Below the pieces are notes generated by a model. It was given only the letters and a program-made list of their open reading frames with translations. It had not been told where the DNA came from and did no database searches. Positions 17,283-60,887 of a DNA stretch of 64,000 nt are shown piece after piece. The first letter of the stretch is position 1, and each line of letters starts with the position of its first letter. A program made the translations under genes and the position numbers. The DNA lies in contig OZ240674.1 in assembly GCA_965198795.1 (NCBI GenBank), forward strand, positions 1,540,522 to 1,604,521. The letters are read 5' to 3'. This stretch comes from Rhodospirillales bacterium. GTDB taxonomy: Bacteria; Pseudomonadota; Alphaproteobacteria; Rhodospirillales; Casp-alpha2.

Positions 17283-17321
17283 GACCCCCTGGCTGGGTCA
17301 AATTTTCCGCTCAAAGCGGTT

Positions 17322-37114: not shown

Positions 37115-37121
37115 GGGCCGA

Positions 37122-38498: not shown

Positions 38499-38505
38499 AC
38501 TCTCT

Positions 38506-42159: not shown

Positions 42160-42176
42160 GATGGGGGCTCGAATTC

Positions 42177-42479: not shown

Positions 42480-42696
42480 TCGTCACGCTCCTCGACGTTT
42501 GGCTTTCCCGGTGATCAACAGATCGGTCCCGGATAGCGCGGCGGGTAATCTTTTATCAACCAAAGTTTGGTTTTCTTTCGCTCGTATTAGAAAGCAAAAC
42601 GGTGAATATTCCGTTATTTTCTTGCAATCCCCGGACCGGGGTTCGGCGGCAGACGCCGTTCCGCCGGCCGTTCCTGACCCGGAAGGAGTTCAAGCC

Positions 42697-45482: not shown

Positions 45483-45502
45483 GGCTTTTTGAGGACATCA
45501 CC

Positions 45503-45748
45503 ATGAGCGATAACGAAAACCGTCTGAAATCAGTGATCGGGGACATTCTGAAGATTGACGCCGGTTCAATCGGCGATGAGACGTCCGTTGACAGTGTAGA
45601 GGCGTGGGATTCGCTCCGTCATCTCAATCTGGTGCTGGCCATTGAGGGTGAATTCGGCATTTCGTTGACCGAGGAGCAGACGGTGGAAATTCTGAATTAT
45701 CCGCTGATCAAGCTTGTGATGGCGGAACACGGGATCGACTTCGGATGA
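45503..45748 (+). CDS. Acyl carrier protein-like (ACP2)
   Basis: 81 aa. ..VDSVEAWDSLRHLNLVLAIEGEF.. has a carrier-protein serine motif (DSL) in helix-II context. Confidence 0.65.
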   Translation: MSDNENRLKSVIGDILKIDAGSIGDETSVDSVEAWDSLRHLNLVLAIEGEFGISLTEEQTVEILNYPLIKLVMAEHGIDFG

Positions 45749-47124
45749 CCGAGGCCGCCGCCGTTAAACGAGCCGACGAGGTTTTGCTGGAGCGTGTCGC
45801 TTCGGGCGGCGGCCTTCCGGCGCTCTATTGGCGCGGCGCTGAAATTACCTATGACCAGCTTTGGGAAAATGTGTCCGCGTGGCGCAAGCGCCTGCGGCGG
45901 GACGGCGTTGAAGCGGGCGACGTCCTGGCGTTTCATGGGGATTTCAGCCCCGGCACGTCCGCGCTCATGCTGGCGGGGGTCGCCGAGGGGGCCATCCTGG
46001 CGCCGTTGACCTGGGATGTGGACTCCGAGCTTGAAAATCTGCTGGCCATCGCCGGCGCCGGGACCTTGTACCGATTCGACGCGGATGACCGGGCGGCAAG
46101 GGAAACATACGCGTACGGCCCCGCGCCGCTCTTGATCGAGGAGTTCCGCGAGCGGGGTCATCCGGGCCTTGTGGTCTTTACTTCCGGCTCCACGGGTAAG
46201 CCCAAGGGAATTTTGCAGGACGTGGCGCTTGTTTCGAGAAAGTTCGTCGCCGAGCGTCCCGGCTGGCGGACGGTGTTGTTCCTGATGATGGATCACTTCG
46301 GTGGATTCAACACGTTCCTCTCCACGTTCGCTTATCGAGGCATGGGGGTGTGCCTGGGCGGCGCGCGCGATCCGGAAACCGTCGCGAAAGCCATTGCCGG
46401 GAGCCGGGCGACCTTGTTGCCGACAACGCCGACGTTCCTGAATTTCCTGATCGCCAGCCGGGCTTACGCGGCTCACGACCTGTCGTCGGTGGAGCTGATA
46501 ACATACGGCACGGAACTGATGCCCGAAACGACCTTGAACGAGATCGCGGCCATTTTTCCGAACGCCAGGTTGAAGCAGACTTATGGGCTGTCGGAACTGG
46601 GCGTTTTACGATCCGAGTCTGAAGACTCCGGCTCGCTCTGGCTGAAAGTGGGGGGCCGGGGTTTCGAGACCAAGGTCGTCAACGGCGTTCTCTGGATTCG
46701 TTCGGAGGCGAACATGGTGGGCTATCTGAACGCGCCTAGCCCCTTTGACGACGCGGGCTGGATGTGCACCGGCGACGAGGTCGAGGTCCGCGGCGATTAC
46801 ATGCGTTTCATGGGCCGGAAAACCGAGGTCATCAACACGGGCGGCAAGAAAGTCTACCCGATCGAGGTCGAAAATTTCCTGATGAGCCTGCCAAACGTGG
46901 GGAACGCGACGGTGGAAGCGCGACCGCATCCGATCATGGGGCAAGTCGTCCAGGCGAGAATTTCCGTGCTGGAACCGGAGGACTCCATGGCCATGACCGA
47001 GCGTCTGCGCGGCCTTTGTAACGAAAAGCTCGCGAAATACAAAGTGCCGGTGAGGTTCGTTCAGATTGATGCGGACGGCCATCACAACATGCGGTTCAAG
47101 AAGGTTCGGACGAATATTTCCTGA
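45745..47124 (+). CDS. AMP-dependent synthetase/ligase (acyl-CoA or acyl-ACP ligase, ANL superfamily)
   Basis: A3 motif VVFTSGSTGKPKGI, ..YGLSE.., ..TGD.., ..GRKTEVINTGGKKVYP... Its start overlaps the ACP2 stop. Confidence 0.85.
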   Translation: MTEAAAVKRADEVLLERVASGGGLPALYWRGAEITYDQLWENVSAWRKRLRRDGVEAGDVLAFHGDFSPGTSALMLAGVAEGAILAPLTWDVDSELENLLAIAGAGTLYRFDADDRAARETYAYGPAPLLIEEFRERGHPGLVVFTSGSTGKPKGILQDVALVSRKFVAERPGWRTVLFLMMDHFGGFNTFLSTFAYRGMGVCLGGARDPETVAKAIAGSRATLLPTTPTFLNFLIASRAYAAHDLSSVELITYGTELMPETTLNEIAAIFPNARLKQTYGLSELGVLRSESEDSGSLWLKVGGRGFETKVVNGVLWIRSEANMVGYLNAPSPFDDAGWMCTGDEVEVRGDYMRFMGRKTEVINTGGKKVYPIEVENFLMSLPNVGNATVEARPHPIMGQVVQARISVLEPEDSMAMTERLRGLCNEKLAKYKVPVRFVQIDADGHHNMRFKKVRTNIS

Positions 47125-47134
47125 AGTCCGGCGC

Positions 47135-47980
47135 TCAAGCCGGCCGCCAGCGCTCTTCCCGTTTCAGACCAGCCATCTCGTCATCCTTGCCGTTCCTGAT
47201 CCAGGCGTCCAACTCGTCGCCATTGGTGATGTAGCAATACATGTCCTCCCGGAAGAGGTCTTCGTTGACTCGGTGAATGTCGCGCGCGAGGCCGCTTTCC
47301 ATCGGGATTCGTCTGTTGTCGCCGACTTTTACCGCGCCATCGGCCCGAAGCGCGCGTCCGAATCCGGTAATGTCCCATTCGGGTACGGCGTGAAGCGAGC
47401 GGGAATACATCACCTCCGCGCAGGGACCGATCTCCTCGCCGTCCTCGAACATGCGCCCGGCGAAGCGTTTGAAGTACCGGTACGGGACCATCAGGATTTC
47501 CTCGGCGTGATGCATGAGACTGCACGACACCCAGGGGACGCCCAGGACGCAGACGCGGGCGTTCACGCCGCACAACCAGCCGAGCACGCCGTCCAGCCCC
47601 CAGGCGGTCGTGCAGGGAAGGGTCAGAAGTTCCTCCGCCCGGGGACCCTTGACCAGGTAACTGTTCATGGGCGAGCGGCTGCGCCGGAAGGCGCCCCCGG
47701 CAAGCGCCGTTTCCGGCAGGCTGCCCGTGTCCGGCGCGGTTCGGACGAGATCGAACGTCCGGTTCCTCGCGAAATCGAGATAGCTGTAGGCGGGCAGCAC
47801 AAGCGTTCTGCCCTCGCCGGCGACATCCTCCAGAATCTCCAGAACCCGCGCCGCCGCCTGGTCCGGCGGCCAACCGAAGGCGTGGACGAAAGTCCAAAGA
47901 CCCGAATAGACTGCGATGACGTCGTTATCCGGGGGCAGGAGCGCTCGAAAGACGTCTTCCAGGTCCCGTTCGGTCGGCAC
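47135..47980 (-). CDS. AAC(3)-family (aminoglycoside 3-N-acetyltransferase-like) N-acyltransferase
   Basis: ..GRTLVLPAYS..RSRSPMNSYLVKGPRAEELL..ARVCVLGVPWVSCSLMHHAEEILMVPY.. follows the AAC(3)/Antibiotic_NAT pattern as I remember it. Confidence 0.5.
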   Translation of the reverse strand: MPTERDLEDVFRALLPPDNDVIAVYSGLWTFVHAFGWPPDQAAARVLEILEDVAGEGRTLVLPAYSYLDFARNRTFDLVRTAPDTGSLPETALAGGAFRRSRSPMNSYLVKGPRAEELLTLPCTTAWGLDGVLGWLCGVNARVCVLGVPWVSCSLMHHAEEILMVPYRYFKRFAGRMFEDGEEIGPCAEVMYSRSLHAVPEWDITGFGRALRADGAVKVGDNRRIPMESGLARDIHRVNEDLFREDMYCYITNGDELDAWIRNGKDDEMAGLKREERWRPA

Positions 47981-47982
47981 GG

Positions 47983-48429
47983 TCAGCCGCCTTCTTGAAC
48001 ACCGGGCTCGCTCTCGGCCTCAAGCAGTTTCCGTACGCCTTCATGAAACGCCCCCAAAACCTCGGCCTCGTGAACAACAAGCTTCTGGGTCAGCTTCATG
48101 CCTTTGTATATTTTACCCTGGTCAACGGCTTGGAAGACTTGATCGGCGATCTCCCGCGTATTGGGCGCCGCCGCGACGAAATCGTCGAGGTAGGTTTTAA
48201 AGACCGCCAGGTACGTGGCTTCTTTTTTCGGGAACATGTAAGCGCACTGCAGCGCGAAATAGACTCGGGCCGCCGGCGTGGCGGCCTCGTCCTCGGTCAA
48301 GACTTCCTTCTCGCGCAAAATCGCCGACTCGTTATGCACCAGCAACTTCGCGTTTCCGCCGATATTCTCGACGACGGCGCCGTTGATGACCACTTTGTCG
48401 CCAGTCTTGACGTCAAGTTTCAAAGGCAT
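47983..48429 (-). CDS. flbT: Flagellin synthesis regulator FlbT (148 aa; start MPLKLDV at 48429)
   Basis: MPLKLDVKTGDKVVINGAVVENIGGNAKLLVHNESAILREKEVLTEDEAATPAARVYFALQ.. matches the FlbT N-terminal pattern. The track ORF start (48696) adds 89 non-FlbT residues. Confidence 0.8.
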   Translation of the reverse strand: MPLKLDVKTGDKVVINGAVVENIGGNAKLLVHNESAILREKEVLTEDEAATPAARVYFALQCAYMFPKKEATYLAVFKTYLDDFVAAAPNTREIADQVFQAVDQGKIYKGMKLTQKLVVHEAEVLGAFHEGVRKLLEAESEPGVQEGG

Positions 48430-48620
48430 TTCAATCCGACTCCCGAGTCCCGGCGTTACGCGGCCATGGTCAGGCCGGTTCGGCGGAATGGTAACGCCAA
48501 ACCCTCCGCTTTTGAATAACGGGTTTCCATGCCATTGGTTTTGCGGGGATTTCTTCCGCAGCGCCCGCGAAATCATGGACCGGACCATTAGGACCGATTC
48601 CGCCGCAGGCCGTTTCGCCG

Positions 48621-48714
48621 TCCCCCGCGCGGGCGGGAATCCAGCGCGGGGGCTCGCGCTGCAAGCAATCATGAGTGACCGTAGAGCGGTCTGCATTCCC
48701 GCCCGCGCGGGGGA
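48621..48714. repeat. Perfect 20-bp inverted repeat (54-nt spacer) in the flbT-flagellin intergenic region
   Basis: tcccccgcgcgggcgggaat (48621..48640) versus attcccgcccgcgcggggga (48695..48714). A partial third copy gcgcgggaat lies at 48725..48734. The spacer contains its own 7-bp hairpin cagcgcg/cgcgctg. Confidence 0.9.
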
Positions 48715-48829: not shown

Positions 48830-48907
48830 CCCGATTGGGTGCCGTCAGAAGGATTGCGCCTACGGGGCAAGAACGCCCTCTCAAATACTCTAGAAAGGAG
48901 TAGACTT

Positions 48908-50269
48908 ATGTCAGACGTTGCTCTTTCATTCGCTGTACGCGATTCACTTCTCTCCCTCCAAAACACGACCGACCTGATCAACAGAACCAACAGCCGCTTG
49001 GCCTCGGGTCTAGAGGTCGCGTCCGCCGTTGACGATCCGGTCGCGTTCTTCACCGCTGTGGGCCTCGCCGACCGCGCGTCCGACTTCGAGGACCGTTTAT
49101 CCGGTATCGAACAAGGCATTCAGGCGGTTACGGCCGCTCTGGACGGTGTTGAAGGCATCGACGGCATCGTTCGTCAGCTCAGAGGTCTCGCCAACAACCT
49201 TCGGTCCGCCAGGGGCACGGCGTTCAATGACTTGGTGACGCAGTTCAATGGGGTCCGTACTCAGATCGGCGAACTGGCCAACGACACCGAGTACCTGGGT
49301 CAGAGCCTGGTCGACAGCACGAGGGAGGAGCTTACGATCCGCTTCTCGACCACGACCAGCGCCCTGCTGCTCCTGCAATCGGAGAACCTCCGCGAAAGCG
49401 GCATTGGCGTTAACCAGCTGATTAGCGGGGGTACCGTCGATGTCGCCTCCGCCGCGGCCCAGGGCGTCTTGACCGGCACCGACTCGGCCGTCACCTACTC
49501 CGGTCAAACCGTCAACCTGGTTGGCGGCGACACCACCGCGGGCGTCACAACGCAGAGTTTGAGCCGCGTGGTCGTCACCTTCAACGGCACGGGCTCCCTC
49601 AGCTTCGATACTCAAGGGGCGACCACGCTTCAGTTCGACCTGGGCACCGTCAGCATCACGATCTCGAATAACCAAGGCGGCAACACGGCCGCGACGGTCA
49701 GGAACGGCGACACGCTGACGCTGGTCCTTTCGTCCAGTACGGATACGCAAGCGTTCACCGGCGGTACCGCCACTTTCAACGTGGCGGCGGACGAGTTTAT
49801 CGGCGTCGTCGACAACGTTCGGGTCAACGTGGGTTCCACCGACAACCGTGCGGGGCTGATCGGCTTCGGCTCCACGCAAACGTCGGTCGCCGAAACGGCT
49901 GATAATTTAACCGCTGCTGAGTTGACGGCGCTGCTGAACACCGCGTCTTTGGGAGTCGATTACACGGCCGTTGAGGAAGCCGACACCGCCGGGTTTGACA
50001 TACTCGTCGGGCAACTCGACTCCGCCATACAGACGCTGCGGACCGAATCCCAGTCTCTGGGTTCGAACGTCGCCTTGCTGCAAACCCGTTTGGACTTCTC
50101 AGAGTCCTACATCAACACCCTTGAGGTGGGTGATGGTCTGCTGACGCTGGCCGACCTGAACACGGAAGGCGCCAACCTGCTCGCTCTGCAAACCAGACAG
50201 CAGCTTGGTATTTCGGCCCTGGCCTTCGCCGGTCAGTCCGAACAGGGCATCCTGAGCCTGTTCAACTAG
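48908..50269 (+). CDS. fliC: Flagellin (453 aa) with a Ser/Thr-rich central domain
   Basis: gaaaggag lies 7 nt upstream of the ATG at 48908. N-terminal ..NSRLASGLEVASAVDDPVAFF.. and C-terminal ..ANLLALQTRQQLGISALAFAGQSEQGILSLFN are flagellin D0/D1 segments. Confidence 0.85.
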   Translation: MSDVALSFAVRDSLLSLQNTTDLINRTNSRLASGLEVASAVDDPVAFFTAVGLADRASDFEDRLSGIEQGIQAVTAALDGVEGIDGIVRQLRGLANNLRSARGTAFNDLVTQFNGVRTQIGELANDTEYLGQSLVDSTREELTIRFSTTTSALLLLQSENLRESGIGVNQLISGGTVDVASAAAQGVLTGTDSAVTYSGQTVNLVGGDTTAGVTTQSLSRVVVTFNGTGSLSFDTQGATTLQFDLGTVSITISNNQGGNTAATVRNGDTLTLVLSSSTDTQAFTGGTATFNVAADEFIGVVDNVRVNVGSTDNRAGLIGFGSTQTSVAETADNLTAAELTALLNTASLGVDYTAVEEADTAGFDILVGQLDSAIQTLRTESQSLGSNVALLQTRLDFSESYINTLEVGDGLLTLADLNTEGANLLALQTRQQLGISALAFAGQSEQGILSLFN

Positions 50270-50323: not shown

Positions 50324-50361
50324 CTCCGTCGGCGGAAAGACCGCCGGCGGAGTTTCGTTTT
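50324..50361 (+). terminator. Intrinsic terminator after flagellin (possibly bidirectional)
   Basis: Stem ctccgtcggcgg / ccgccggcggag (one G-U pair), loop aaaga, then tttcgtttt. A second hairpin gaaggcg-cttt-cgccttc lies at 50287..50304. Confidence 0.7.
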
Positions 50362-51878
50362 CAAGCCGGGCCGTAAAGAGCGTCAACCATTTGTTTGACG
50401 GCTGACTCCCAATCCGATGGCGCTTCTTGACGGAAGAGCCGCGTCGCCGGATACCAAGGTGTTGTCCCGCCCGTTTGACCCCAGCGCCAATCGGCGACGA
50501 ACGGCAGCACGATCCAGGTCGTCAGGCCCATAGCGCCGGACAGGTGGGCGGCCGACGTGTCGACGGAGATGGTCAGGTCCAGCTTCGCCATCAACTTCGC
50601 CGTATCCGCGTAGTCCCTCAGCCCTTCAGACCAGTCGTCGAGTTTTCCGGCGAGGCCCTCAACGGAAATCTCTCCGGCGCCCCCCATTTGCAGGCTGACC
50701 CACCGCGCGCTGGTTCCATTGATCAGTGGCTTCAGAAAAGAGAGAGGCATGGATCTCTCCGCATCGGCCCGATGTTCGGGATTTCCGCGCCAAACCAGGC
50801 CGATTTTTTCGGGAGGCCAAGCCGGCGTTTTGATGTCCGGGCGCTCAAGATAGGGGGCGGGCGGCGAGTCGGAGGGAGACGGTTTTCCTAAAAGAAGCGG
50901 GAGGCTCATCAAAGGAACATGAAAGTCGGTTCGCGTCCGGATACGGGGAACATCCGAGGAATGGACGCCGTCGGCGCCGGACACGCCGGCCAAAAGGCGC
51001 GCGAGGGACGGCGGGCACACAAACTCGACGCGCCGGCAGCGTTCCCGAAGCGCCGCGAGATAGCGGACGAATTGAATGGTGTCGCCTTGACCCTGCTCGG
51101 CGTACACGCAAACGGATTTGCCTTCGACCGGCTGGCCGGTCCAAGGCTCCGCCTTCTCGACGCCCAATGGCGGAACAAGCAACCGCCGCCGCGCCTCAAA
51201 GGCTCTGTATCCGTCCTCCCACCGTTCAAGGCAAAGCAACGTCTGGGCTTTGTTCCATTGTGCGAGAAACGAGCCAGGATCCATTCGGGCCGCCTTTTCA
51301 AGCGTCTCGCACGCGGCCTCGAATTGGCCCAGGCGCTGTTGGCATAAACCCAGATTTATCAATAAGCTGGCGTCGTCCCGAATCCGCGCTGAAGCGTTCT
51401 CGAAATCGGTCAGGGCGTCGTGAAGCCGGTTCATGCGGTAGAACGCGTTTCCCCGATTGAATAACGCGCGTCCATGACGGGGGTCTTGCCGGATAATTTG
51501 GCTGAAGCCATTGATCGCGGCGGTGAAATCTCCGGCGTCATACGAGAGTCTGGCCAGATTAAACAAGGCGTCGCGATGGCCGGGATTGAATTCAACGGCT
51601 TTCTTCCATTGAGCCCGGGCGTCATGAGTCCGGTTCTGTGATTTCAGACAGACCCCGTAATTGTAGTGAATGTCTGATCTGCCGGGCAGGCGGACGAGAG
51701 CGTCTTCGTATAGCCCGGCGGCTTTCTCATGCTCGCCTTCCCGGTCCGCCAACACGGCCGACAGGTAAAAGGCTTCCGAAACGTCAGCGCCGCAAAGAGC
51801 GTCCGCGAGCTTTCGGGCTTCCCGCCTTTCTCCCGAGATTATGAGCCGCCTCAAATCGCCGACCCGGGGGGATGTCAT
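50361..51878 (-). CDS. TPR-repeat protein fused to a GT9-like GT-B glycosyltransferase domain (paralog of 17322..18860)
   Basis: TPR repeats in the N-terminal half. ..GQGDTIQFVRYL.. and ..TISVDTSAAHLSGAMGLTTWIVLPFVADWRWGQTGGTTPWY... Its start overlaps the maf stop. Confidence 0.6.
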   Translation of the reverse strand: MTSPRVGDLRRLIISGERREARKLADALCGADVSEAFYLSAVLADREGEHEKAAGLYEDALVRLPGRSDIHYNYGVCLKSQNRTHDARAQWKKAVEFNPGHRDALFNLARLSYDAGDFTAAINGFSQIIRQDPRHGRALFNRGNAFYRMNRLHDALTDFENASARIRDDASLLINLGLCQQRLGQFEAACETLEKAARMDPGSFLAQWNKAQTLLCLERWEDGYRAFEARRRLLVPPLGVEKAEPWTGQPVEGKSVCVYAEQGQGDTIQFVRYLAALRERCRRVEFVCPPSLARLLAGVSGADGVHSSDVPRIRTRTDFHVPLMSLPLLLGKPSPSDSPPAPYLERPDIKTPAWPPEKIGLVWRGNPEHRADAERSMPLSFLKPLINGTSARWVSLQMGGAGEISVEGLAGKLDDWSEGLRDYADTAKLMAKLDLTISVDTSAAHLSGAMGLTTWIVLPFVADWRWGQTGGTTPWYPATRLFRQEAPSDWESAVKQMVDALYGPA

Positions 51879-53869
51879 GAGGTGAAGGCCCCCTCGAAGA
51901 TGTCCTCTCCGTTATAAGCGGAAAGGTCCAGAATCTCTCCCCGGTCAAGAGCCTCGAAATTGATCCTGGCTTTTTCGGTCATCAGATCGATCACTGCGCA
52001 AGCTTCGTTGACGAACAGTTCCCGGAGCCGCTCCCGCTGGCTGTCTTCCACGCGGCTCATGTAGTAGTCGGCGCCGATGTTCATCATGTGGTAAGTGCCC
52101 CGCGTCATCATCGCGGCGAACAACTCCAGTCCCTCTTTCGGCTCCAAAAGGAGCGCCGAGGATTTGACTTGAAAATCCGGTCCATCAAGATGTCCCGCGT
52201 TCCGGAACGCGTCCTTGTAGGCGCCGGCCAGTGTTTCCAGAGACGCGAGCGTTTCTTGAACATTCCAGCAAGCGGCGAACATTTCCTCGGTGAATTCGCC
52301 GAAACTCTCGACAATATCGTTCGTCACTTCCGATTTATCCTTATCCAATGGAGCGAGATCCAGACCGCCGCCCAGCTTCGCGGTGGCGCCGTTCACGTAA
52401 ACGCCGTCGCTGCAATTGAACACCTTGCATCGTTTGTAGCGGTTTATCGCGCGTTGGAGCGAGTCCCGCGCCCAAAATAAGCCGTGAAAAGTATACGCCC
52501 TGCCCCCGAAATTGCCCGGAAGCTCGATACTGAAATCAGGATCCCAGTGGGGAGCGTCCTTTGAGTAATGGTAAACGTCGCCGTGGTGATGACGCTGGCC
52601 TTTCTTGCCCATATCAACGCCGAACATATAGATTTTCCTGAAATCCGCCGACTGAAGGAAAGAAAGCGCCGCGTTGGCCACGGTTGGGTCGGGATCCTCC
52701 AGGGTATGATTGACGTCGTTGCTGAACAGAGCGAACGGGGACAATCCCTGCCTGAAGAAGTAAACGCACCGCTTAAATATTCCCTTGATTTTCAAATCCA
52801 CCGTGACGGGACCGAGAAAAACGATGTCCGACAGGTCAAATTCGCCCGCCGCGTAATTAATGGTTTTATCGACGTCGAGGTTTTCAAGTTCGATATGGAT
52901 GTCGGGTCTGACGCCGGCGCGCAGCAGCGGCATCAGGGCGGTTCCGCAAGAGACAATCAGCGCGTTATTTTGCTGTTCCTTGATCGTCTCGAGATCATTT
53001 GATAGAGACGGACCCGAACCGATTAAAAAAACCGGAATGTTATCTTTATTTTTGTATCTCCGTGTAAATATTCGTGGCCGCCCACTCTTCAGGTTTGTGC
53101 AAGTATTGCTGATCATAAGGTTTTCATCATAGAAAAACCCAAGACCGGAAAGGTAAAGTCTCATGTTTTCCCTGAAATGATATGCCGATTTTTCCAAGAA
53201 AGGAGATTTATAGAGTTGAAATATGGAAACCCCATCCAGGGCGCAGGGATTATGAACTCTGGTCCGGTATCGAAAAATTTCAGCAAAATCGTTATCATTA
53301 TTTGATGGTAATAAAAACAAGTCCACATTATTATCTTGTAATTTTTGCAACAGGGAAAACCAATCCAGGACCGTCACGGAGTGAAAAACAAGTTCAAGGT
53401 TCGGCTCCTGGATCAATATATTGCGGGCGCGAAGCGTGTCGGCCAACTCTTCGATGTGAAGCCCGAGACCCAGGCCAAATAAGCATACATAGTATGAGTC
53501 GGTTGATTTTCTGTTTGGAGAAAACTGAATATTTTCCTCCTCTGCGGCGTCCAACACATTCTTCATGACGCGGCCCGCGTAACTGTCGAACGACGTCGGT
53601 TCTATTTTGTCTAGAGCTATTCTTGTGGGAGTCTCGAAAAAAGCGCTGAGCTTTTCGGCGGCGTAAGCTGCAGCGTCGCCGCCGAAAAAGGCCTTGTCCT
53701 GAAAGTAGATATCAAACGAGCCGTCGTCATGGACGCGGAGTTCCGTCTGGGGGGAGAGAGCGTCCAGTTTTTGCGTGACTTCGGGAAATTTTTGGCGGAA
53801 CGCGAAAAGGTTCCGTTCGCGGCGTTCTTCCAAATCTACGCCCCTCAAATTGATCGTCGGTCCACTCAC
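51875..53869 (-). CDS. maf: Motility accessory factor (Maf, DUF115/MptE-like), a putative flagellin nonulosonic-acid transferase
   Basis: ..IPVFLIGSGPSLSNDLETIKEQQNNALIVSCGTALMPLLRAGVRPDIHIELE.. matches the Maf/DUF115 core as I remember it. The roughly 660-aa size is typical of Maf. Confidence 0.75.
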   Translation of the reverse strand: MSGPTINLRGVDLEERRERNLFAFRQKFPEVTQKLDALSPQTELRVHDDGSFDIYFQDKAFFGGDAAAYAAEKLSAFFETPTRIALDKIEPTSFDSYAGRVMKNVLDAAEEENIQFSPNRKSTDSYYVCLFGLGLGLHIEELADTLRARNILIQEPNLELVFHSVTVLDWFSLLQKLQDNNVDLFLLPSNNDNDFAEIFRYRTRVHNPCALDGVSIFQLYKSPFLEKSAYHFRENMRLYLSGLGFFYDENLMISNTCTNLKSGRPRIFTRRYKNKDNIPVFLIGSGPSLSNDLETIKEQQNNALIVSCGTALMPLLRAGVRPDIHIELENLDVDKTINYAAGEFDLSDIVFLGPVTVDLKIKGIFKRCVYFFRQGLSPFALFSNDVNHTLEDPDPTVANAALSFLQSADFRKIYMFGVDMGKKGQRHHHGDVYHYSKDAPHWDPDFSIELPGNFGGRAYTFHGLFWARDSLQRAINRYKRCKVFNCSDGVYVNGATAKLGGGLDLAPLDKDKSEVTNDIVESFGEFTEEMFAACWNVQETLASLETLAGAYKDAFRNAGHLDGPDFQVKSSALLLEPKEGLELFAAMMTRGTYHMMNIGADYYMSRVEDSQRERLRELFVNEACAVIDLMTEKARINFEALDRGEILDLSAYNGEDIFEGAFTS

Positions 53870-54083
53870 GGTCTTAAATCCTTATCAACCATAACAATAC
53901 GACGCCCGCGCCCATGACCGGACGGGTCGATGAAACATTATGACGACCGAGTTAAAAAATGACAAAGAACGGGATATTAAAAAATCATCGATGCTGAAGA
54001 TAAATTCTAAAAAAATAGATTTTTCGTGACTTTTAGGCCGTATCGAATTAAAATCAATCCATTGTTTTATTAGGAGCGTCCTT

Positions 54084-54914
54084 ATGACCGACGGCCCTTC
54101 CATCGCATCCGTTTTCGCCGCCGTTGGGCAGGCCAATCAACGCGCCCAATTTAATATTCAGTTCAACAATCTTCAGAACACCTTGATTCGGCGGTTCAAC
54201 GAAGACGCCGAGGAGGCTGCGGAGACTCCGTTTTCGGTCGAGCGGGAAATCAACATTCTCGAAGACAACCTCGAAGACCTTACAAACGGCGCCTCGGTGC
54301 TGAGGGAGTTCGGCCAAGGGAACGTGAACAACGCTTCACAGTTGCGGTGGCTGTTGGGCCAAGTAGGAGAGCTTTTTGGGACATTCAACAGCGATGACGC
54401 GGTGACGGCGGAAGAAGTAAGCGCGTTCACGGCCCGGCGTGACGCGATCATTCAACAGGTCAACAATCTGACGATTTTCAGCCACCCCGAGATCGTGACG
54501 CCAAATGTCATTCAGGATTTGAGGGACAGCGCCAACCAACTGGCGTCCGTCGAGCCTCAAGCGGGCGCGCTTTCGGATCCGGCCAACGCCGCCGTGTCCG
54601 AACGATTGACGGCGTTTCGAGACCGAATCACCAACGGCGTCCTTATTTTGCGGAATACGGTCGATGTCGTGAATAACCTGGAAAAAGGCATCACGCGGCA
54701 GGTGACTTCAGTGCGAACGCGGCTTACCTCAATCACGCGCGATGAACGACAGCGGCAGGAAACGGAAATCGAGAATCTCAGGGCCCGGCTGGGTAACCAG
54801 TTGCGCGCCATTTCCCTGACCTTCGAAGCCAACAGCGCCCTGGCGGATCAATTGAATGTTCGATTGAATCCGGCCATTCCCGATCCTGGCTCGGTTGTCA
54901 GCATCCTGACGTAA
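54084..54914 (+). CDS. Hypothetical, apparently helix-rich/possibly coiled-coil protein (276 aa), no recognisable family
   Basis: aggag lies 8 nt upstream of the ATG. Coherent composition rich in helix formers. I saw no signal peptide or TM segment. Divergent from maf across an AT-rich spacer. Confidence 0.5.
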   Translation: MTDGPSIASVFAAVGQANQRAQFNIQFNNLQNTLIRRFNEDAEEAAETPFSVEREINILEDNLEDLTNGASVLREFGQGNVNNASQLRWLLGQVGELFGTFNSDDAVTAEEVSAFTARRDAIIQQVNNLTIFSHPEIVTPNVIQDLRDSANQLASVEPQAGALSDPANAAVSERLTAFRDRITNGVLILRNTVDVVNNLEKGITRQVTSVRTRLTSITRDERQRQETEIENLRARLGNQLRAISLTFEANSALADQLNVRLNPAIPDPGSVVSILT

Positions 54915-54984
54915 GGCTTCCTTTCCGTGGGGGCCGTCCGGGCGCGCCGCATGTTCCGCGGGCAAGACTTCCCGTACCGTTCAT

Positions 54985-57018
54985 TCAGTCGCCGGTTGAA
55001 CCGGCCAACTCCTCGTGACGGTTAATCAGGAATGTGTCCAGCGTCTGGGCCGTGATCAAGGGCTGGGTCAGGGGGGTGCTGTGCAATTCGCCGCGCAGGT
55101 TTTTTCGCAAGGCGGCCAGAGAATCGGGATCACTGACCAGTTGTTCGATTATGCCGGTCATCTCGCGGCGCGTTTCCCCCGAAAGCTGGCCGTTGGCGGC
55201 GGACATCAACACCCCGGAAGCGATCAATCCGGATAAACATGTTTCGCGATGAGAAACCACCGGCACACCCATAATCAAGGCTTCCGCCGTCCGGTAGCCA
55301 TCCGTGCGTCTTCCAAATTCCAGGAAAATATCGACGCTGGCGAAGAATCCCGGGTTTTTGCCATCGGGTAACGGTTCAACGAAATCCCAATCAAAACAGT
55401 CTTCGACGCCGTGATCGGCGGCGATCCGCCGGATGCGCGCGAATATTTCCTCGTCCCGTTTCGGCCCCCAAAGCACGCGCATTCCGGAACCTTCGAATGT
55501 CCGAAGAATATTTGCGACTTCCTCGAAATCCTGCGGCGTGTAATTGAAGAGATCGGCGCGCATACCGAAGGTCGGCGCCCCCTTCGCCACGATTGGGGCG
55601 TCGCCGGCCAGCGGGGACAACGCCTGCGATCCGGTCGTCCAAACGCCCAAAGGCGCGGCGACCAAATGGATGGAATCACGCGCGACCGCCGGCAGAGCGG
55701 CGACGTCGTGTTCGTACGCCAAAAATGAGTTGATGCCGGGCAGGGGGAAGCCATGCTTGAATGGCGGCCAGCACACTCGCATGGGTGCGTCGCTCCGCAG
55801 AAAAAGCTGAGGTCTGGATGGTTCCGTCGATATGGTCGCATCGATCAGAACATCGAGACCATCATTCTTCATTATGAGAGCGACAACTTCATCGTCGAGA
55901 TCTTGGATCTTGCGTGACTGGCTGGCCAATTCGCGCAACTTTTTTGTCATCTCGTCCGAAGACACGCTGTCTTCGTACAAGTGGACCTCGCAGCGGGTTT
56001 TGTTGTGTCCACCCAGAAAATCAGACAAAAACCGGGTCTCTTCGCAATGGTGGGTGGCGTTGGTGAGGTAACCGATGACCAAACGGCGTCCATTGAGAGG
56101 GGCCGGAGCCGGAGGCTCCTTTTCCACACTCAAGGGCGCTCTCTCGTGCATGGCGTCAAGGAAGAGTCGCGCCTCATCCGGATGCGTCGCCGTGAGGCAG
56201 GAACCGCGGACCGCTATCCGGCAAGACAACTCAAAAGAGTCGGGATCAAGTTTCAATGCCTCGCGATGCTGGAGAACGCCTTCCTCGATCTCTCCAATTT
56301 CATAACAGGCTTCGCCCAGCCAATAGCGGAACTCGGCGTTGTTCATGTCCTTTTTCACGCCATGGCTCAGCACGCCGAGCGCTTCCTTGTACAGACCATT
56401 GGTTTGATAGAGCTTTCCAACCGCCAGCAGACAGTCCAAATGGTCGGGATTCAGCCTGAGTTCACGAAGAAACCTGATTTCCGCCTCTTTGAAATCGCGT
56501 TTATCCGCGAACCTGACGCCCCGCGCGTAATCAAGAGACGGTCTTACTTCGGCGGCGGCGTTATAAAATCCCGTCAAATAGTCAGGCAGAAGCCCCTCAA
56601 TCTCGGGATGCGGTTCAAGCACGGTGGACAATTTGGCGAAATAAACGCCATCCGATAGATTTCCGACTTTAGTGTTAAGATTGGCCAGGGCCTCCGCGTA
56701 CTCGTACCTTTCAGGGTCCAGTTCATGAGCCTGCTTAAGAAAAGCTAGAGCACGGCCTTCCTCGCCGAGTTTTACGCTGGCCAGTCCCATAATGAAATAA
56801 AGTTCGGGAGCATCTGGATAGTTCCGAATTTCGACAGCGACTCTGTTTACGACTGTCTCCGTCTCGTCATTTTGGAGTCCTTCCAGAAGCTCGCGGATCA
56901 ATTCCAGGTAAGACAGCTCGGGAGCGATTGTTTCCGACATTTCCGACCCGCCCCCGTCAGACGCGATTCGTCCGGATGATGCGGATTTTTGTCTCGCGCC
57001 ACATGATTTTATGCTCAA
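54985..57018 (-). CDS. TPR-repeat protein fused to a GT41 (SPINDLY/O-GlcNAc-transferase-like) domain
   Basis: TPR repeats (..YFIMGLASVKLGEEGRALAFLKQAHELDP..). C-terminal ..TAEALIMGVPVVSHRETCLSGLIASGVL..LVSDPDSLAALRKNLRGEL..PL.. resembles the COG3914-type OGT C-terminus. Confidence 0.6.
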   Translation of the reverse strand: MSIKSCGARQKSASSGRIASDGGGSEMSETIAPELSYLELIRELLEGLQNDETETVVNRVAVEIRNYPDAPELYFIMGLASVKLGEEGRALAFLKQAHELDPERYEYAEALANLNTKVGNLSDGVYFAKLSTVLEPHPEIEGLLPDYLTGFYNAAAEVRPSLDYARGVRFADKRDFKEAEIRFLRELRLNPDHLDCLLAVGKLYQTNGLYKEALGVLSHGVKKDMNNAEFRYWLGEACYEIGEIEEGVLQHREALKLDPDSFELSCRIAVRGSCLTATHPDEARLFLDAMHERAPLSVEKEPPAPAPLNGRRLVIGYLTNATHHCEETRFLSDFLGGHNKTRCEVHLYEDSVSSDEMTKKLRELASQSRKIQDLDDEVVALIMKNDGLDVLIDATISTEPSRPQLFLRSDAPMRVCWPPFKHGFPLPGINSFLAYEHDVAALPAVARDSIHLVAAPLGVWTTGSQALSPLAGDAPIVAKGAPTFGMRADLFNYTPQDFEEVANILRTFEGSGMRVLWGPKRDEEIFARIRRIAADHGVEDCFDWDFVEPLPDGKNPGFFASVDIFLEFGRRTDGYRTAEALIMGVPVVSHRETCLSGLIASGVLMSAANGQLSGETRREMTGIIEQLVSDPDSLAALRKNLRGELHSTPLTQPLITAQTLDTFLINRHEELAGSTGD

Positions 57019-57020
57019 TT

Positions 57021-57575
57021 CTAAATTTCAGCGTCAATGTGAAGGCGGGAAGGGGCTGAATTTTGGGATTGTTCCGCCTCGACCGGTTCTTCAACCGGAG
57101 CCGCCAACTGTTTTTGTTGAACCTCAACGCTTGAGGCGGAGGCGTTTGAGAGAGACGCAACGAGACCGGCCGCGATGTTTCGGTTGATGTCGATCAGAAC
57201 ATTCATCATCTCCGCCGTGGGTTTGACCATCGCGGCGACCATGTGTTTGTCGATGAATTTGCAAAGCGTCAACATGTTGATCCGCAATTCGGGCGGCACT
57301 TCGGAGCGGTCAGTCGTCAATTCCGCCTGAAAGATTGTCCAAAGACGCCAATTCAGCCGCAAGGCCTGCCGTCTTTCTTGTTTCGATTTTTTTTCGTCGT
57401 TGGGATGCGAGGTTAATGAGAGGGTCATTCGCTTTGCGGCCTCGACGAGGGCCCACGCCTCTGTGCGGGTTGGGTTCCCGGCGATAGGCCGTTGATCGTA
57501 TTTTTTAACCTGCTTGTGATGAGGAGGCATTTCTTGTCTCGTGTCGTCGTCTTCTTGGCTAGCGTTGGTGAACAT
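57021..57575 (-). CDS. flaF: Flagellar biosynthesis regulator FlaF (start may be the internal MPPHH at 57530)
   Basis: ..RTEAWALVEAAKRMT..RRQALRLNWRLWTIFQAELTTDRSEVPPELRINMLTLCKFIDKHM.. fits the FlaF pattern. Position is right after flgL. Confidence 0.7.
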   Translation of the reverse strand: MFTNASQEDDDTRQEMPPHHKQVKKYDQRPIAGNPTRTEAWALVEAAKRMTLSLTSHPNDEKKSKQERRQALRLNWRLWTIFQAELTTDRSEVPPELRINMLTLCKFIDKHMVAAMVKPTAEMMNVLIDINRNIAAGLVASLSNASASSVEVQQKQLAAPVEEPVEAEQSQNSAPSRLHIDAEI

Positions 57576-57647: not shown

Positions 57648-60600
57648 TTACAGGAATTGGAGGAGTGACAATTGCCGGACACGGGAGAAGGTTTGATATG
57701 ACGTTTCCAGTAAACGCTGTTCATTCAAAAGGTTAGTAATGGACTCCAGACGGTCCGCGTTTTCGACTCCCGCGATGCTGGTCTCGAAGAAATCAACAAG
57801 GTCTTCCGAGCGCTTGTTGGTGTCTTTGATGAGCACTCGATTGAACGCAAGCTCCATACGAAGCGTATCTACGTTGTCATTCAATTCCTCGCCGAACGGC
57901 GGCGGTTCGGTGTTCGTCGAGTCAAGCGCGTCGTTCAATAAGTAGAGCGCCTGCGTGACGCGCTCCGGATTCTGGTCCAGGCCGCCCTCGGAGCCATATT
58001 CTCCTTGCAGGATCAGGCGAGCCGCCCGAATGGCTTTTTCGAAGGCGGGGTTCGACGCATTGACGTCGAACTCGATCAATCTGTCGTTGCTTATCCTTTG
58101 ATTAATTGAGAGGTTGTCGCCGTTATAATAGGAATTGGCGGTGATGGCGCCGGATGTTAGCGGCGACGAGAGAAAGCCCGTGGTCGCGGAGCCCGTCGCC
58201 ATCACATCGTCACTCGACATTAAGGTGGCGGTGCTTCCGTCCGTCGAAACCGATTGAATGGTAAAGGTCAAACCGTCATTCGTGGTGCCCGTCCCGAGCA
58301 CTGTGAATTGCGTCCCGGCGGCCAAAAGATTGCCATCGGAGTCCCGGAAATCGCCATTCGACAAAGTGATCGAGTCCGCCGAGCCGCCGCCTTCCGTAAA
58401 GGTTATCGCTTGCTGAACGGTGGCCGCGCCGGTGCTTCGAAGGTTCTCGTTCGTCAGTGTGTCTCCGGTGACCAGCGTCGCGACATTACCCGCCGCATTC
58501 AAGCTCGCGATGGTGAAGGTGCCGTTGTTGTTGGCGGAGCCGGTAATGGTTATCCGGGTGTTCGCCCGCAGAGGATTTCCGTTCGAGTCCGTGAATGTTC
58601 CGTTGGACAGTGTGATCGTATCGGCGCTTGGGTTATTGTCGCTAAATGTGAATGACGGCACAGTAGTGACCGAACCTGCGGCTGTGGCGTCCGTTATGGT
58701 CAGAGCCGGCGAGCCGGCCAGGTCCGCTGTCCTGTTGTTGTTGCTAAGCGACGTGATGGTGAATATCCGGCCATCATTGGCGGTGCCCGTGCCGGCGACC
58801 TGGATCTGAGTTCCCGGCGGCAACGGCGCGCCGGATGAGTCCACGAATGATCCTCCGTTTGACAGGGTGATCCTGTTTGAGCCCAAGTTGGTAAAGGCGA
58901 TATCCGCCGCCGCCGGCGCGTTAAACATGAAGTTCGACGCGGCGGCGGCGTTGAACGTAAAGATCGGCGGGGCTGACGTATCAAATTGCGTCGCCGTATC
59001 CGCGTTGGACAGCGTGCCGGCGACACCCGCGACAGCAGTCACGGAGTCACCGCTTGATAGAGTGATCGTCGCGCCATTGGCCGAAATACCGGCGATGGTG
59101 AACACCTGGTTTCGGTTTGCGCCGGTCGCGGCGCCGCCGACACGGATTCGCTGTCCGATTTCGAAATTACTGAAGACATTGAGAGCGGGACTTGCGGTGA
59201 TCGTGTCCGCATCGGGAGCGTTGTCGTTGAACGTAATGGTCACGTCGGCCTGAAGGTTGGCGGTGTTCGTTGTTTCATTGGTGAGTGTATTCGCCGGTAT
59301 CAATGTCGCTGTCGTTCCATCCGCCGAGACCGAGGCAATGGTGTGCGTAGCGTTGTTCGACATGGTCGTCGTGGTGACGATCTGCGTGCCGCTGGGCAGT
59401 AGATTGCCCAACGAGTCGGTGAAGCGGGCGCCGCCGGTTAATCGAATGGTGTCCGGCGCCGCGCCGTTATCGGTAAAGATCGCCATCTCAGTGCTGGGAG
59501 AGGTGATGGCGAAGGTGAAGACATTGGTGTCGAAGTCAAACGCGTTGGCGCCTTGGATTGTCCCGTTTTGAACAGCGGAGGCCGCGACGACGCTGTCATT
59601 GGCCGAAAGGGTAAGCGTATTGTTGTTGGCGGAGATCGACGCCACGGTGAAGGTGCGCCCGTCGTTGTTCGTCCCGGTGCCTTGAATTTTGATCCTTTGA
59701 CCGACTTCCACCGCGGCGAACGCGTTGGACGCGAGAGGGGCGGTAATACTATCCGGTCCGGCGCCTCCATCGACGAAGTTGATCTGCTGATTGCCGCTAC
59801 CGGCCTTCAGTATCTGGCGTTCGCCCCCTAATGAGGTCAGCCGTTTACTTTGAACTGTCAGATTGGTTCCGTCGTTGGCGGCGACCGTGAAGGTGTTGTT
59901 GTTGCTGGTTGTGCCCGAGATGGCGATCACGCTGCCGACTGGAATGTCGGAAAGAGCGCCAGTTTCCGCCGCTGTGATCGTATTGGTTTGCCGGTCGAAG
60001 GAAACCTCCGCCGTCACGGTTTTATCGACCAGAGGCTCCAAACTTATTGGATAGGTGAATGTGGCGTTCAAGGGGTCGTCCACGGCGCCCGTCTCGTCAG
60101 TCAGTTGTTTGGTGACGACGTCGATGTAAAAGCCGTTCGGATCGACAGCCGCAATTGTGTAAGTCCCGTCATTGACGCCGTTCAAGGTTCCGGAAATGTT
60201 GATCGTGCCGCCGACGTCGGCGTTTTGAAATTGAGCGACGGACGAACTGATCCGGCTGTCGCCGCCACTGGTCGTGCCGGTGAAGGTGAGAAAGTTCGGG
60301 TCAAGAGTGTCAGGGTTGTTATTGATGGTGAAGTCCGCCAGCGCCGCATTGCGGGTCGTTGGAACCGTTACGGTCGAACCATTGAATACGGATTGGAACG
60401 CCGCTTTGGTTGTGAGGCCTAGATCTATGGGTTCGGTTGTCGCTCTGCCGCCTCCGAATATGAAACCGCGGTCGTCCTCGGTGTTCAGCAATCCCTCAAG
60501 ATTCAAGAGCATCCGGAAAGCGTTGTCCTGAATTTTATTTGTCTTGGTTTCGCTGGAAACGCCGAAATTCTGATGATATGTGTTCAGTAGCTTACGAAAA

Positions 60601-60872
60601 TTCCCGATGTCGTCATTGATCCCTTTCAGTGTGGTTTCCTGCACCTTAAGGCGGAGATCGGCAATCTCGTTGTTGGTTTGAAATCTCTCAAGACTGTCGC
60701 GGGTAGTTTCCATATCCAGCAGACGCTGGCTGACGCCGGTCTCCAGACCGCTGTAGACCTGGGCTTTCTTTTGAGATGAGGTCTGTTGATTCAGAGAAAA
60801 TAGATTCGTCTGCGTCAACAACAGCCGGTTAATGATCGCCTGACTGGATGCGAGTGTGCCGAGACGGGTCAT
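57648..60872 (-). CDS. flgL: Hook-filament junction protein FlgL (HAP3), giant 1074-aa form
   Basis: N-terminus MTRLGTLASSQAIINRLLLTQTNLFSLNQQTSSQKKAQVYSGL and C-terminus ..LLNEQRLLETSYQTFSRVRQLSLLQFL are FlgL/flagellin-type termini. Immediately follows flgK. Confidence 0.85.
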   Translation of the reverse strand: MTRLGTLASSQAIINRLLLTQTNLFSLNQQTSSQKKAQVYSGLETGVSQRLLDMETTRDSLERFQTNNEIADLRLKVQETTLKGINDDIGNFRKLLNTYHQNFGVSSETKTNKIQDNAFRMLLNLEGLLNTEDDRGFIFGGGRATTEPIDLGLTTKAAFQSVFNGSTVTVPTTRNAALADFTINNNPDTLDPNFLTFTGTTSGGDSRISSSVAQFQNADVGGTINISGTLNGVNDGTYTIAAVDPNGFYIDVVTKQLTDETGAVDDPLNATFTYPISLEPLVDKTVTAEVSFDRQTNTITAAETGALSDIPVGSVIAISGTTSNNNTFTVAANDGTNLTVQSKRLTSLGGERQILKAGSGNQQINFVDGGAGPDSITAPLASNAFAAVEVGQRIKIQGTGTNNDGRTFTVASISANNNTLTLSANDSVVAASAVQNGTIQGANAFDFDTNVFTFAITSPSTEMAIFTDNGAAPDTIRLTGGARFTDSLGNLLPSGTQIVTTTTMSNNATHTIASVSADGTTATLIPANTLTNETTNTANLQADVTITFNDNAPDADTITASPALNVFSNFEIGQRIRVGGAATGANRNQVFTIAGISANGATITLSSGDSVTAVAGVAGTLSNADTATQFDTSAPPIFTFNAAAASNFMFNAPAAADIAFTNLGSNRITLSNGGSFVDSSGAPLPPGTQIQVAGTGTANDGRIFTITSLSNNNRTADLAGSPALTITDATAAGSVTTVPSFTFSDNNPSADTITLSNGTFTDSNGNPLRANTRITITGSANNNGTFTIASLNAAGNVATLVTGDTLTNENLRSTGAATVQQAITFTEGGGSADSITLSNGDFRDSDGNLLAAGTQFTVLGTGTTNDGLTFTIQSVSTDGSTATLMSSDDVMATGSATTGFLSSPLTSGAITANSYYNGDNLSINQRISNDRLIEFDVNASNPAFEKAIRAARLILQGEYGSEGGLDQNPERVTQALYLLNDALDSTNTEPPPFGEELNDNVDTLRMELAFNRVLIKDTNKRSEDLVDFFETSIAGVENADRLESITNLLNEQRLLETSYQTFSRVRQLSLLQFL
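58217..60280 (-). repeat. Array of at least 8 divergent protein-level repeats (NDG module) forming the FlgL insertion
   Basis: Recurrent pattern [hydrophobic]xxGxxIx[VI]xGTGxxNDGx[FY]T[IV]xSxSxxGxTATL. Examples: GQRIKIQGTGTNNDGRTFTVASISANNNTLTL, GTQIQVAGTGTANDGRIFTITSLSNNNRTADL, GTQFTVLGTGTTNDGLTFTIQSVSTDGSTATL. Coordinates are approximate. Confidence 0.8.
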
Positions 60873-60887
60873 GACATGATCTCCTTC

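Follow-up and report, generated by a model that had tools for sequence, protein, structure and literature searches.

A flagellar glycosylation island of a Rhodospirillales bacterium encoding Maf, two GT9-fold TPR proteins related to FlmG and a divergent GT41-like TPR protein

A 64-kb stretch of contig OZ240674.1 from a Rhodospirillales bacterium (the window; all positions are counted from its first nucleotide) carries four genes, all on the minus strand, that an original prediction had put forward as candidate protein glycosyltransferases for one visible flagellin. They encode a Maf protein (51875-53869; 664 amino acids (aa), GTG start), two proteins in which tetratricopeptide repeats (TPRs) precede a GT9-like glycosyltransferase (GT) domain, here named TPR-GT9a (50361-51878; 505 aa, gene P0279 of the source genome) and TPR-GT9b (17322-18860; 512 aa), and a GT41-like TPR protein (54985-57018; 677 aa from a TTG start). 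All four open reading frames (ORFs) were found at exactly the positions given for them and with the Pfam domain content that had been described. The source annotation has the same genes, including a plus-strand gene here called orf276 (54084-54914; P0282) and a 651-aa version of the GT41-like protein (P0121, 100% identical) that starts at Met27 (position 56940). Those window proteins that were looked up in the protein collection are singleton clusters there. From the sequence comparisons given below, three of the four genes probably encode working transferases and the fourth an accessory protein, so that the four would not be equivalent.

Flagellar and glycosylation genes form one contiguous island in the window, with a GC content of about 60%. 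According to Pfam and NCBIfam scans the island contains flhF, flhA, a sigma-54 activator gene, motA, fliH, fliF, flgE, flgD and fliK, then TPR-GT9b and a sugar-biosynthesis block of about 29 kb (18853-47998), and then flbT, the flagellin gene, TPR-GT9a, maf, orf276, the GT41-like gene, flaF, flgL and flgK. FlaF (57021-57575, minus strand; a flagellin synthesis/secretion regulator, PF07309 E = 1.3e-22, NF009435 E = 1.6e-22) and its partner FlbT (47983-48696, minus strand; a flagellin translation repressor, PF07378 E = 5.3e-32, NF001995 E = 2.3e-23) mark the island as alphaproteobacterial. Searches with tblastn within the window found exactly one flagellin, one Maf, one GT41-like and two GT9-like genes, bearing out the single flagellin (48839-50269, plus strand, likely start Met24 at 48908; Flagellin_N, Flagellin_C and NCBIfam flagellin models). 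The flagellin gene is convergent with TPR-GT9a, whose start overlaps the stop codon of maf (ATGA). The sugar operon closes with TPR-GT9b, which shares 8 nt with the GNAT gene upstream of it; fliK-flgD-flgE (11367-17074, minus strand; Pfam) lie directly downstream of TPR-GT9b. The GT41-like gene directly follows flaF in the string flgK-flgL-flaF-GT41-like, flgL and flgK (57648-63155, minus strand; Pfam and NCBIfam) being upstream of flaF. The additional TPR proteins are therefore linked to flaF and to the sugar block, as had been proposed.

The 664-aa protein is a genuine Maf, in agreement with its initial Maf/DUF115 label. It carries the Pfam domains Maf_flag10_N (PF20157, E = 1.4e-37) and MptE-like (PF01973, E = 3e-27), both above their cutoffs, and its residues 19-642 align to residues 14-648 of the Magnetospirillum magneticum AMB-1 Maf 5MU5 (E = 3.3e-89), including the C-terminal helical bundle. 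5MU5 is the only solved Maf structure, and the GSGPS, SCGTA and FGVDxG stretches are conserved between it and the window Maf. The three-part architecture (N-terminal domain, GT-A-like MptE domain and C-terminal helical bundle) is shared with the AMB-1 Maf, PseE and PseD, and here too the gene adjoins a flagellin gene and nonulosonic-acid biosynthesis genes. We predict from these matches that the protein, like other Maf of the Magnetospirillum type, transfers a nonulosonic acid to flagellin in O-linkage. On the NCBIfam PseD model it scores 54.8 bits, below the cutoff of 670, its gene is co-transcribed with that of an FlmG-superfamily enzyme and flanked by orf276 and the GT41-like TPR gene, and it lacks TPRs itself, unlike Maf-1 of Shewanella oneidensis and an 845-aa Maf encoded in a Magnetococcales locus described below. 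The conserved catalytic Asp is given as D247 in S. oneidensis Maf-1 and D261 in Maf-2.

TPR-GT9a and TPR-GT9b are paralogues, as had been suspected (32% identity over 492 aa, BLASTP E = 3e-48), with the similarity strongest in the C-terminal 270 residues. Pfam recognises N-terminal TPRs in both. The GT9-like label is seen by Pfam only for TPR-GT9b, where PF01075 (E = 4.5e-8, 33.2 bits against a cutoff of 22) covers just 37 residues (428-464) and TIGR02193 (E = 6.9e-7) matches at the VDT..AH motif; TPR-GT9a has no Pfam GT match at E = 0.01. Many homologues of the TPR-GT9 C-terminal domain carry PF01075, and a search of a collection of 5.8 billion proteins with the TPR-GT9a domain gave 585 relatives at E ≤ 1e-5 among 5,250 scored candidates. 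Those listed are mostly TPR fusions, some with PF01075, and the named sources include Alphaproteobacteria, Magnetococcales, Betaproteobacteria and Tepidisphaeraceae. A full-length AlphaFold 2 model of TPR-GT9a built on 47 of these relatives (predicted local distance difference test (pLDDT) 94) consists of 14 TPR helices (residues 4-232) and a compact GT-B domain (255-502), a two-lobed Rossmann domain.

A fold search with this model was dominated by the TPR-GT-B architectures of SPINDLY (SPY) and OGT, at low template modelling (TM) score, and a domain-only model was therefore needed. For the C-terminal domain alone (pLDDT 90) the 29 best Foldseek matches in the PDB are all GT9 proteins, among them Veillonella 3TOV, TibC (4RAP), WaaC (2H1H) and WaaF (1PSW), with E-values of 4e-6 to 5e-4 and TM scores of 0.52-0.60 normalised to the query. 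The predicted structure thus indicates that the GT9-like label is correct at the level of fold, and TibC, a protein heptosyltransferase, demonstrates that this fold is able to glycosylate proteins. Sequence similarity to GT9 is marginal: PDB sequence searches gave TPR matches only for full-length TPR-GT9a and nothing meaningful for its C-terminal domain, and a family profile found WaaC as its only PDB match (E = 0.09), at 'VVSVDTGLSHL' against the family motif 'LVITVDTAVAHL'. A (V/I)DT(G/A)..H(L) motif is common to GT9 and the TPR-GT9 domain, as is a Gly-Asp ending the first beta-strand loop, where WaaC has its catalytic Asp13. Differences from GT9 are the fusion to TPRs and the length of the domain, which is about 50-100 residues shorter in the window proteins. 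General Pfam and NCBIfam scans of the window did not bring any ADP-heptose biosynthesis genes to notice.

Comparison with FlmG, the flagellin glycosyltransferase of Caulobacter crescentus and Brevundimonas subvibrioides (PMC7591256; bioRxiv 10.1101/2022.03.25.485807), required a reference sequence, and C. crescentus FlmG peptides were derived from primers tabulated by Ardissone et al. 2020 (PMC7591256): the N-terminus MSRKSALESSA, AREKTGD, FQIPGVR-WSGQDLRGK where the GT domain starts, and the C-terminus ALRDFAAS. Exact 23-mers from the primers for C. crescentus flmG and B. subvibrioides flmG had no match in a collection of genome contigs, an exact 23-mer had none in metagenomes, and a 52-aa query stitched from the peptides gave no candidates in the protein search. 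A degenerate DNA pattern for WSGQDLRGK found eight metagenomic loci. One of them (L011:9347-11146) encodes a 599-aa protein that starts with MSRKKALESSAS and contains AREKTGD and FHIPGARWSGQDLRGK; it is validated by the primer peptides MSRKSALESSA, AREKTGD and FQIPGVRWSGQDLRGK, and at AREKTGD 17 nucleotides of its gene are identical to the PflmG_X primer. Downstream of the gene are orthologues of C. crescentus FlmC (58% identity) and FlmH (55%), and upstream of it three flagellin genes. By sequence and context it is an FlmG orthologue from a Caulobacter-like organism. A second, partial FlmG orthologue is found in L007. Five other loci carry TPR-GT9 proteins of the window type, called type A below (ORFs of about 870-900 aa in L006, L008 and L013, partial ones in L009 and L012), and the remaining one is a chance match. 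The proteins of L006, L008 and L013 carry a complete C-terminal extension of about 300 residues.

The FlmG orthologue matches TPR-GT9a (E = 2e-24) and TPR-GT9b (E = 2e-21) over both the TPR and the GT domains in BLASTP, and the GT41-like protein only in the TPR region (E = 0.14). Homology to FlmG thus extends to both GT9-like proteins but not to the GT41-like protein, which beyond its TPRs is unrelated to FlmG. The two TPR-GT9 proteins are far closer to FlmG than to heptosyltransferases of the lipopolysaccharide (LPS) core, for which the best profile match is WaaC at E = 0.09. FlmG and the TPR-GT9 proteins share N-terminal TPRs followed by a C-terminal GT-B domain of the same length, the motifs W.G..L.GK, AEQG.GD and PWYP, and a context of flagellar and nonulosonic-acid genes; identity is only 25-26%.

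A GT-domain alignment and an all-against-all comparison by bit score divide these proteins into two clades. Type A contains both window proteins, P0003 (L002_485), P0046 (L001) and P0069 (L004), and is marked by AEQG.GDT(I/L)QF.RY, PLMSLP, RRS, (V/I)DT..AHL.GA, DWRW and LFRQ. Type B contains the two FlmG orthologues and three 700-aa TPR proteins of locus L002, and has GDE..FA, a replacement of DT..H by FSNATAN or GRCWIST, and a two-residue deletion before PW.P. Scores are 142-237 bits within type A, 114-218 bits within type B and 46-104 bits between the clades; the window GT domains score 58-71 bits with FlmG as against 142-196 bits with type A members. Where the window proteins keep VDT..AH, PLMSLP, RRS, DWRW and LFRQ, FlmG has FSNATAN, AIGDFL, GRQFS and others. 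On these alignments TPR-GT9a and TPR-GT9b belong to a sister clade of FlmG and are not FlmG orthologues, so that the description of the TPR proteins as FlmG-like holds, in the sense of homology over both domains, for two of the three.

FlmG has been described as confined to Caulobacterales (bioRxiv 10.1101/2023.12.03.569772). This restriction may hold for strict FlmG orthologues, the superfamily being much wider. The flagellar island of L002/L003 has at least four TPR-GT9-fold paralogues (L002:3571-5718, 5875-7974, 8001-9458 and 15156-17378), one of type A and three of type B, and the latter suggest that FlmG-type enzymes may not be limited to Caulobacterales either.

Of the 20-27 residues that are invariant in the type A family, both window proteins have every one, and they therefore look like functional enzymes, as far as their sequences can tell. 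This bears on an explanation in which only Maf matters, the TPR proteins being paralogues that are redundant or in decay, or else purely regulatory TPR scaffolds that have no transferase function. Maf alone is sufficient in some systems, such as S. oneidensis Maf-1, and the active site of the GT41-like protein (see below) is degenerate; but invariant residues are retained throughout a large and well-conserved family, the models are of high confidence, and the ORFs are intact with a third-position GC content (GC3) typical of the genome. We regard this explanation as highly improbable.

Genomic context was sampled for seven type A homologues, three of which are in flagellar or glycan islands. 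The L001 homologue is beside deoxythymidine diphosphate (dTDP)-sugar genes, a GT25 gene, motA, flagellin, fliD and fliS; that of L002/L003 is beside flgE-flgD, two NeuB genes, a cytidine monophosphate (CMP)-transferase gene and the three type B paralogues; and that of the Magnetococcales locus L004 is beside the gene for the 845-aa Maf and aminosugar genes. In flagellar islands, type A accompanies a nonulosonic-acid transferase, either Maf or FlmG-type, and does not replace it. This also separates the window from Caulobacter, which has no Maf. Co-occurrence of this kind makes it unlikely that TPR-GT9a and TPR-GT9b are a second nonulosonic-acid transferase of the FlmG kind. Together with the retention of VDT..AH, which is lost in FlmG, it suggests that type A enzymes most likely add a sugar different from that of FlmG, and probably one activated by a nucleoside diphosphate (NDP), by analogy with GT9. 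D261, T262 and H266 of WaaC presumably carry a structural role at the equivalent motif.

The other four of the seven homologues (L005, L015, L016 and L017) are in non-flagellar neighbourhoods: a polysaccharide ABC-transporter locus, carbohydrate-utilisation genes, a locus with GT4 and GT41 genes, and housekeeping genes. By its distribution, the family as a whole appears to be a general one of TPR-guided glycosyltransferases. Such neighbourhoods, and a fold whose family is best known for LPS core heptosyltransferases, would suit a role of the type A pair outside the flagellum, on other proteins or on a polysaccharide, with the genes residing in the island only for its shared sugar precursors. 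Against this, TPR-GT9a is translationally coupled to maf and TPR-GT9b sits between the sugar operon and fliK-flgD-flgE, three independent homologues adjoin genes for flagellin/FliD/FliS, FlgE/FlgD or Maf, and both proteins are much closer to FlmG (E of about 1e-21 to 1e-24) than to WaaC. Their TPR domain is, moreover, placed as in FlmG, where it is the flagellin-binding part (PMC7591256). A non-flagellar role for the pair is thus improbable.

The GT41-like protein has TPRs and a marginal Pfam GT41 match (PF13844, 26.8 bits against a cutoff of 25). The whole protein matches the Thermobaculum OGT (TtOGT, 5DJS; E = 1.6e-31), SPY of Arabidopsis (E of about 3e-16) and XcOGT of Xanthomonas (E = 1e-8); its catalytic domain alone aligns end to end with 5DJS (E = 1.3e-21 over 361 residues) and matches SPY with E = 1.9e-11. 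It had appeared to be an orphan in a word-indexed search (six matches), an impression overturned by an exhaustive HMMER search (12,444 relatives). TPRs, a bilobed GT-B domain and full-length alignment are thus shared with GT41 enzymes, including human OGT; a difference is the location of the gene in a flagellar operon after flaF.

Further differences from GT41 are found at the active site. In SPY, the phosphates of guanosine diphosphate (GDP) are bound by N661, K665 and T748, and its base is stacked by H728; activity depends on H495, S496 and Y744, and K665 is essential (Zhu et al. 2022, PMC9715652). A pairwise HMMER alignment of the window protein with SPY has Ala at N661, Asn at K665 (the position of K842 in human OGT), Arg at Y744, Gly, Tyr and Arg at T747, T748 and T749, Pro at H728, Ala at D491, Cys at H495 (with two His just before it) and Glu at S496, as seen in 'TFGMRADLFNYTP' against 'TFGSFNNLAKITP' and 'GRRTDGYRTAEAL' against 'PYAGTTTTCESL'. 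The essential Lys, the phosphate-binding Asn and Thr and the base-stacking His of GT41 are therefore all replaced. Its closest single-domain relatives (P0149, at 34-36% identity, and a dozen more) carry the motif TFGG(R/K)CDLA(R/N/x)LTP and lack TT(T), whereas more distant canonical relatives retain FGSFN..K and TT(T). Since the change is common to a subclade, it is not random decay; it is compatible with either an altered donor chemistry or a non-catalytic role. Given these replacements, the protein can not be counted as a straightforward fourth glycosyltransferase or an ordinary OGT, and of the original proposal the TPR/GT41 architecture stands. Given its sequence and its neighbourhood (below), a role as a Maf accessory or adaptor protein, or as a transferase whose donor is non-canonical, is more likely for it than that of a classical OGT.

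The gene orf276, located between maf and the gene for the GT41-like protein, is preceded by an AGGAG ribosome-binding site and encodes a 276-aa protein. Searches of Pfam, NCBIfam and the PDB found no relatives of this protein, weak Pfam matches of coiled-coil type apart. A cryptic flagellin was considered and rejected (BLASTP E = 0.038). A homologue was found in a contig of a second organism (L014:2317-3162, minus strand; 25% identity over 265 aa, E = 6e-11, N- and C-termini conserved), where it is located between P0122, the GT41-like protein nearest to that of the window by word search, and a truncated gene whose product matches the C-terminal helical bundle of Maf (PF20156, E = 1.2e-5; BLASTP to residues 590-646 of the window Maf, E = 0.001). 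As far as these matches identify them, Maf, orf276 and a divergent GT41-like gene are neighbours in two distantly related contigs. TPR-GT9 and TPR-GT41 genes are also within a few kb of one another in L013 (where the GT41-like gene is about 4 kb downstream) and L016.

The flagellin-binding determinant of the M. magneticum Maf has been stated to be unknown, and Shewanella Maf-2 requires a small cis-encoded adaptor, GlfM (bioRxiv 10.1101/2022.03.25.485807, 10.1101/2023.12.03.569772). In the light of this, orf276 and/or the GT41-like TPR protein may reasonably be read as a putative adaptor or accessory protein of Maf. As in the GlfM-Maf-2 system of S. oneidensis (bioRxiv 10.1101/2023.12.03.569772), the window combines a Maf devoid of TPRs with a small cis-encoded protein of no known family, and in L014 the orf276 homologue is immediately downstream of the maf-like gene, as GlfM is. 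The product of orf276 is longer than GlfM (276 aa versus 89 aa), and in the window the gene is divergent from maf; there is in addition a separate GT41-like TPR protein in the neighbourhood.

Candidate acceptors other than flagellin are the products of fliK-flgD-flgE and of flgL and flgK. Ser and Thr make up 46-48% of the C-terminal tail of FlgD, 34-38% of patches in FlgL and 26-34% of the flagellin core, compared with 10-13% of Maf, FlhA and FliF, and parts of FlgE are also Ser/Thr-rich relative to cytoplasmic or membrane flagellar proteins. The Ser/Thr-rich regions that had been pointed out in axial proteins are hence present in the FlgD tail, FlgL patches and parts of FlgE, and from composition substrates beyond flagellin are plausible. 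The axial proteins are also unusually large (FlgE 892 aa, 11367-14045; FlgL 1074 aa, 57648-60872; FlgK 755 aa, 60888-63155), and these genes are accompanied by flgD (14167-15129; 320 aa) and fliK (636 aa). FlgE of Helicobacter pylori carries pseudaminic acid (Pse) at three sites (bioRxiv 10.1101/2025.07.13.664564).

These acceptors figure in a second explanation, in which all four proteins are active protein glycosyltransferases that either build a flagellin oligosaccharide stepwise or modify separate substrates (flagellin, FlgE, FlgL, FlgK and FlgD). All four genes are in flagellar or sugar operons, the giant axial proteins offer Ser/Thr-rich regions, and pseudaminylation of FlgE is on record. 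The change in the GT41 subclade is systematic, with a conserved Asp and a frequent Arg, as would fit an active enzyme with another donor, and a cyanobacterial GT41 enzyme is reported to glycosylate a pilin. The GT41-like protein is, however, devoid of the Lys essential in SPY and of the equivalents of N661, T748 and H728, both TPR-GT9 proteins are outside the FlmG clade, and the acceptors can not be identified from sequence. Four active enzymes therefore seem rather unlikely to us.

We favour, with moderate confidence, a flagellar glycosylation island with a division of labour among Maf, the two TPR-GT9 proteins and the GT41-like protein. Maf would act as a cytoplasmic O-transferase that puts a CMP-activated nonulosonic acid made by the 29-kb block onto Ser/Thr of flagellin. 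TPR-GT9a and TPR-GT9b would be active bipartite protein glycosyltransferases of the FlmG-like kind, in which the TPR superhelix selects the acceptor and the GT9-fold domain transfers another sugar, probably an NDP-activated one. That their TPR domains have diverged and their genes occupy separate places in the operons suggests that the two serve different acceptors or sites. The GT41-like protein, with its rewired donor-phosphate site, would be an accessory or adaptor of Maf or a transferase with a non-canonical donor.

Several observations weigh against this division of labour. The GT41 subclade often has Arg at the position of the Lys, along with a new conserved Asp, so its members may be active enzymes and not adaptors. 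With four of seven sampled homologues in non-flagellar contexts, the type A family is not intrinsically flagellar, and taking VDT..AH as the sign of an NDP-sugar donor draws on the analogy with WaaC. The L014 neighbourhood is a single contig of 3.8 kb with a weak Maf call (Maf_C 25.7 bits against a cutoff of 27; E = 0.001). Further flagellins or glycosyltransferases may also be encoded outside the 64-kb window.

The combination of Maf, two type A enzymes of the FlmG superfamily, a rewired GT41-like TPR protein and a conserved orf276 makes the island a variation, itself new, on known flagellin-glycosylation systems. In the current picture, flagellin is glycosylated either by Maf, which is widespread, or by FlmG, which is said to be restricted to Caulobacterales. 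The locus identifies FlmG as one branch of a much larger TPR-GT9-fold superfamily and shows that Maf and FlmG-related classes coexist; type A adjoins Maf or FlmG-type enzymes in flagellar islands from several lineages, which suggests that sugar is transferred in a second step as yet uncharacterised. The orf276 product and the rewired GT41 TPR protein are candidates for how a Magnetospirillum-type Maf recognises flagellin. As a more speculative and doubtful proposal, Maf, orf276 and the GT41-like protein might form an undescribed module, with the last as the acceptor-recognition subunit of Maf or a GT41-fold enzyme switched to a monophosphate (CMP) sugar donor, and type A might be a widespread second FlmG-related class that adds a non-nonulosonic sugar to axial proteins, including hook and hook-associated proteins. 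Enzymes that pair TPRs with a GT domain are attractive tools for engineering O-glycosylation of specific sites in the cytoplasm, and a clade that uses another donor would extend their range.

The sugar block has a single NeuB-type synthase gene (35210-36262), which scores higher on the NCBIfam model NeuB_NnaB than on PseI, as against three paralogues of the CMP-cytidylyltransferase family CTP_transf_3 (21476-22216, 23504-24271 and 30939-31697), all 32-36% identical to Caulobacter FlmC (PseF). Two of the three cytidylyltransferase genes adjoin genes for GFO/IDH/MocA oxidoreductases. The block also encodes two DegT aminotransferases, two GFO oxidoreductases, two GNATs, a dehydratase, AsnB, a deacetylase and methyltransferases, as well as a WbuX amidotransferase with HisH/HisF-like partners (acetamidino formation). 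Queries for Caulobacter FlmH (PseH) and FlmD (PseG), translated from the synthetic operon of the FlmG paper, had no homologue in the window, and the pathway thus looks more like a legionaminic- or neuraminic-type one than the Caulobacter Pse route. The identification of the GNAT upstream of TPR-GT9b as FlmH, and with it a conserved flmGH module and a Caulobacter-like Pse pathway, was rejected on the same absence. The distal part of the block (36350-47998) encodes FkbH, KASIII, a fusion of a MaoC-like dehydratase and a short-chain dehydrogenase/reductase (SDR), a metallo-beta-lactamase-fold protein, an AMP-dependent ligase, two methyltransferases and a DUF4910/M28-like protein. Its FkbH, KASIII, MaoC-SDR and AMP-ligase set points to an unusual decoration, of acyl or glyceroyl type, on the nonulosonic acid. 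A 360-aa ORF between the GNAT and GFO oxidoreductase genes (19377-20459, minus strand) has a faint match to Epimerase_2 (UDP-GlcNAc 2-epimerase, E = 0.013) and may be a divergent hydrolysing epimerase of GT-B fold or a PseG/LegG-like enzyme.

Base composition is uneven along the island. The maf gene has a GC content of 0.51 and a GC3 of 0.61, compared with about 0.60-0.63 and 0.69-0.81 in the genes to its left, and the stretch from orf276 to flgK is in between (GC 0.53-0.57); this end of the island may have a different origin. At the opposite end, downstream of flhF, a 320-aa ORF (656-1618, minus strand) that matches no other family has a weak match to collagen triple-helix repeats (E = 6e-4).

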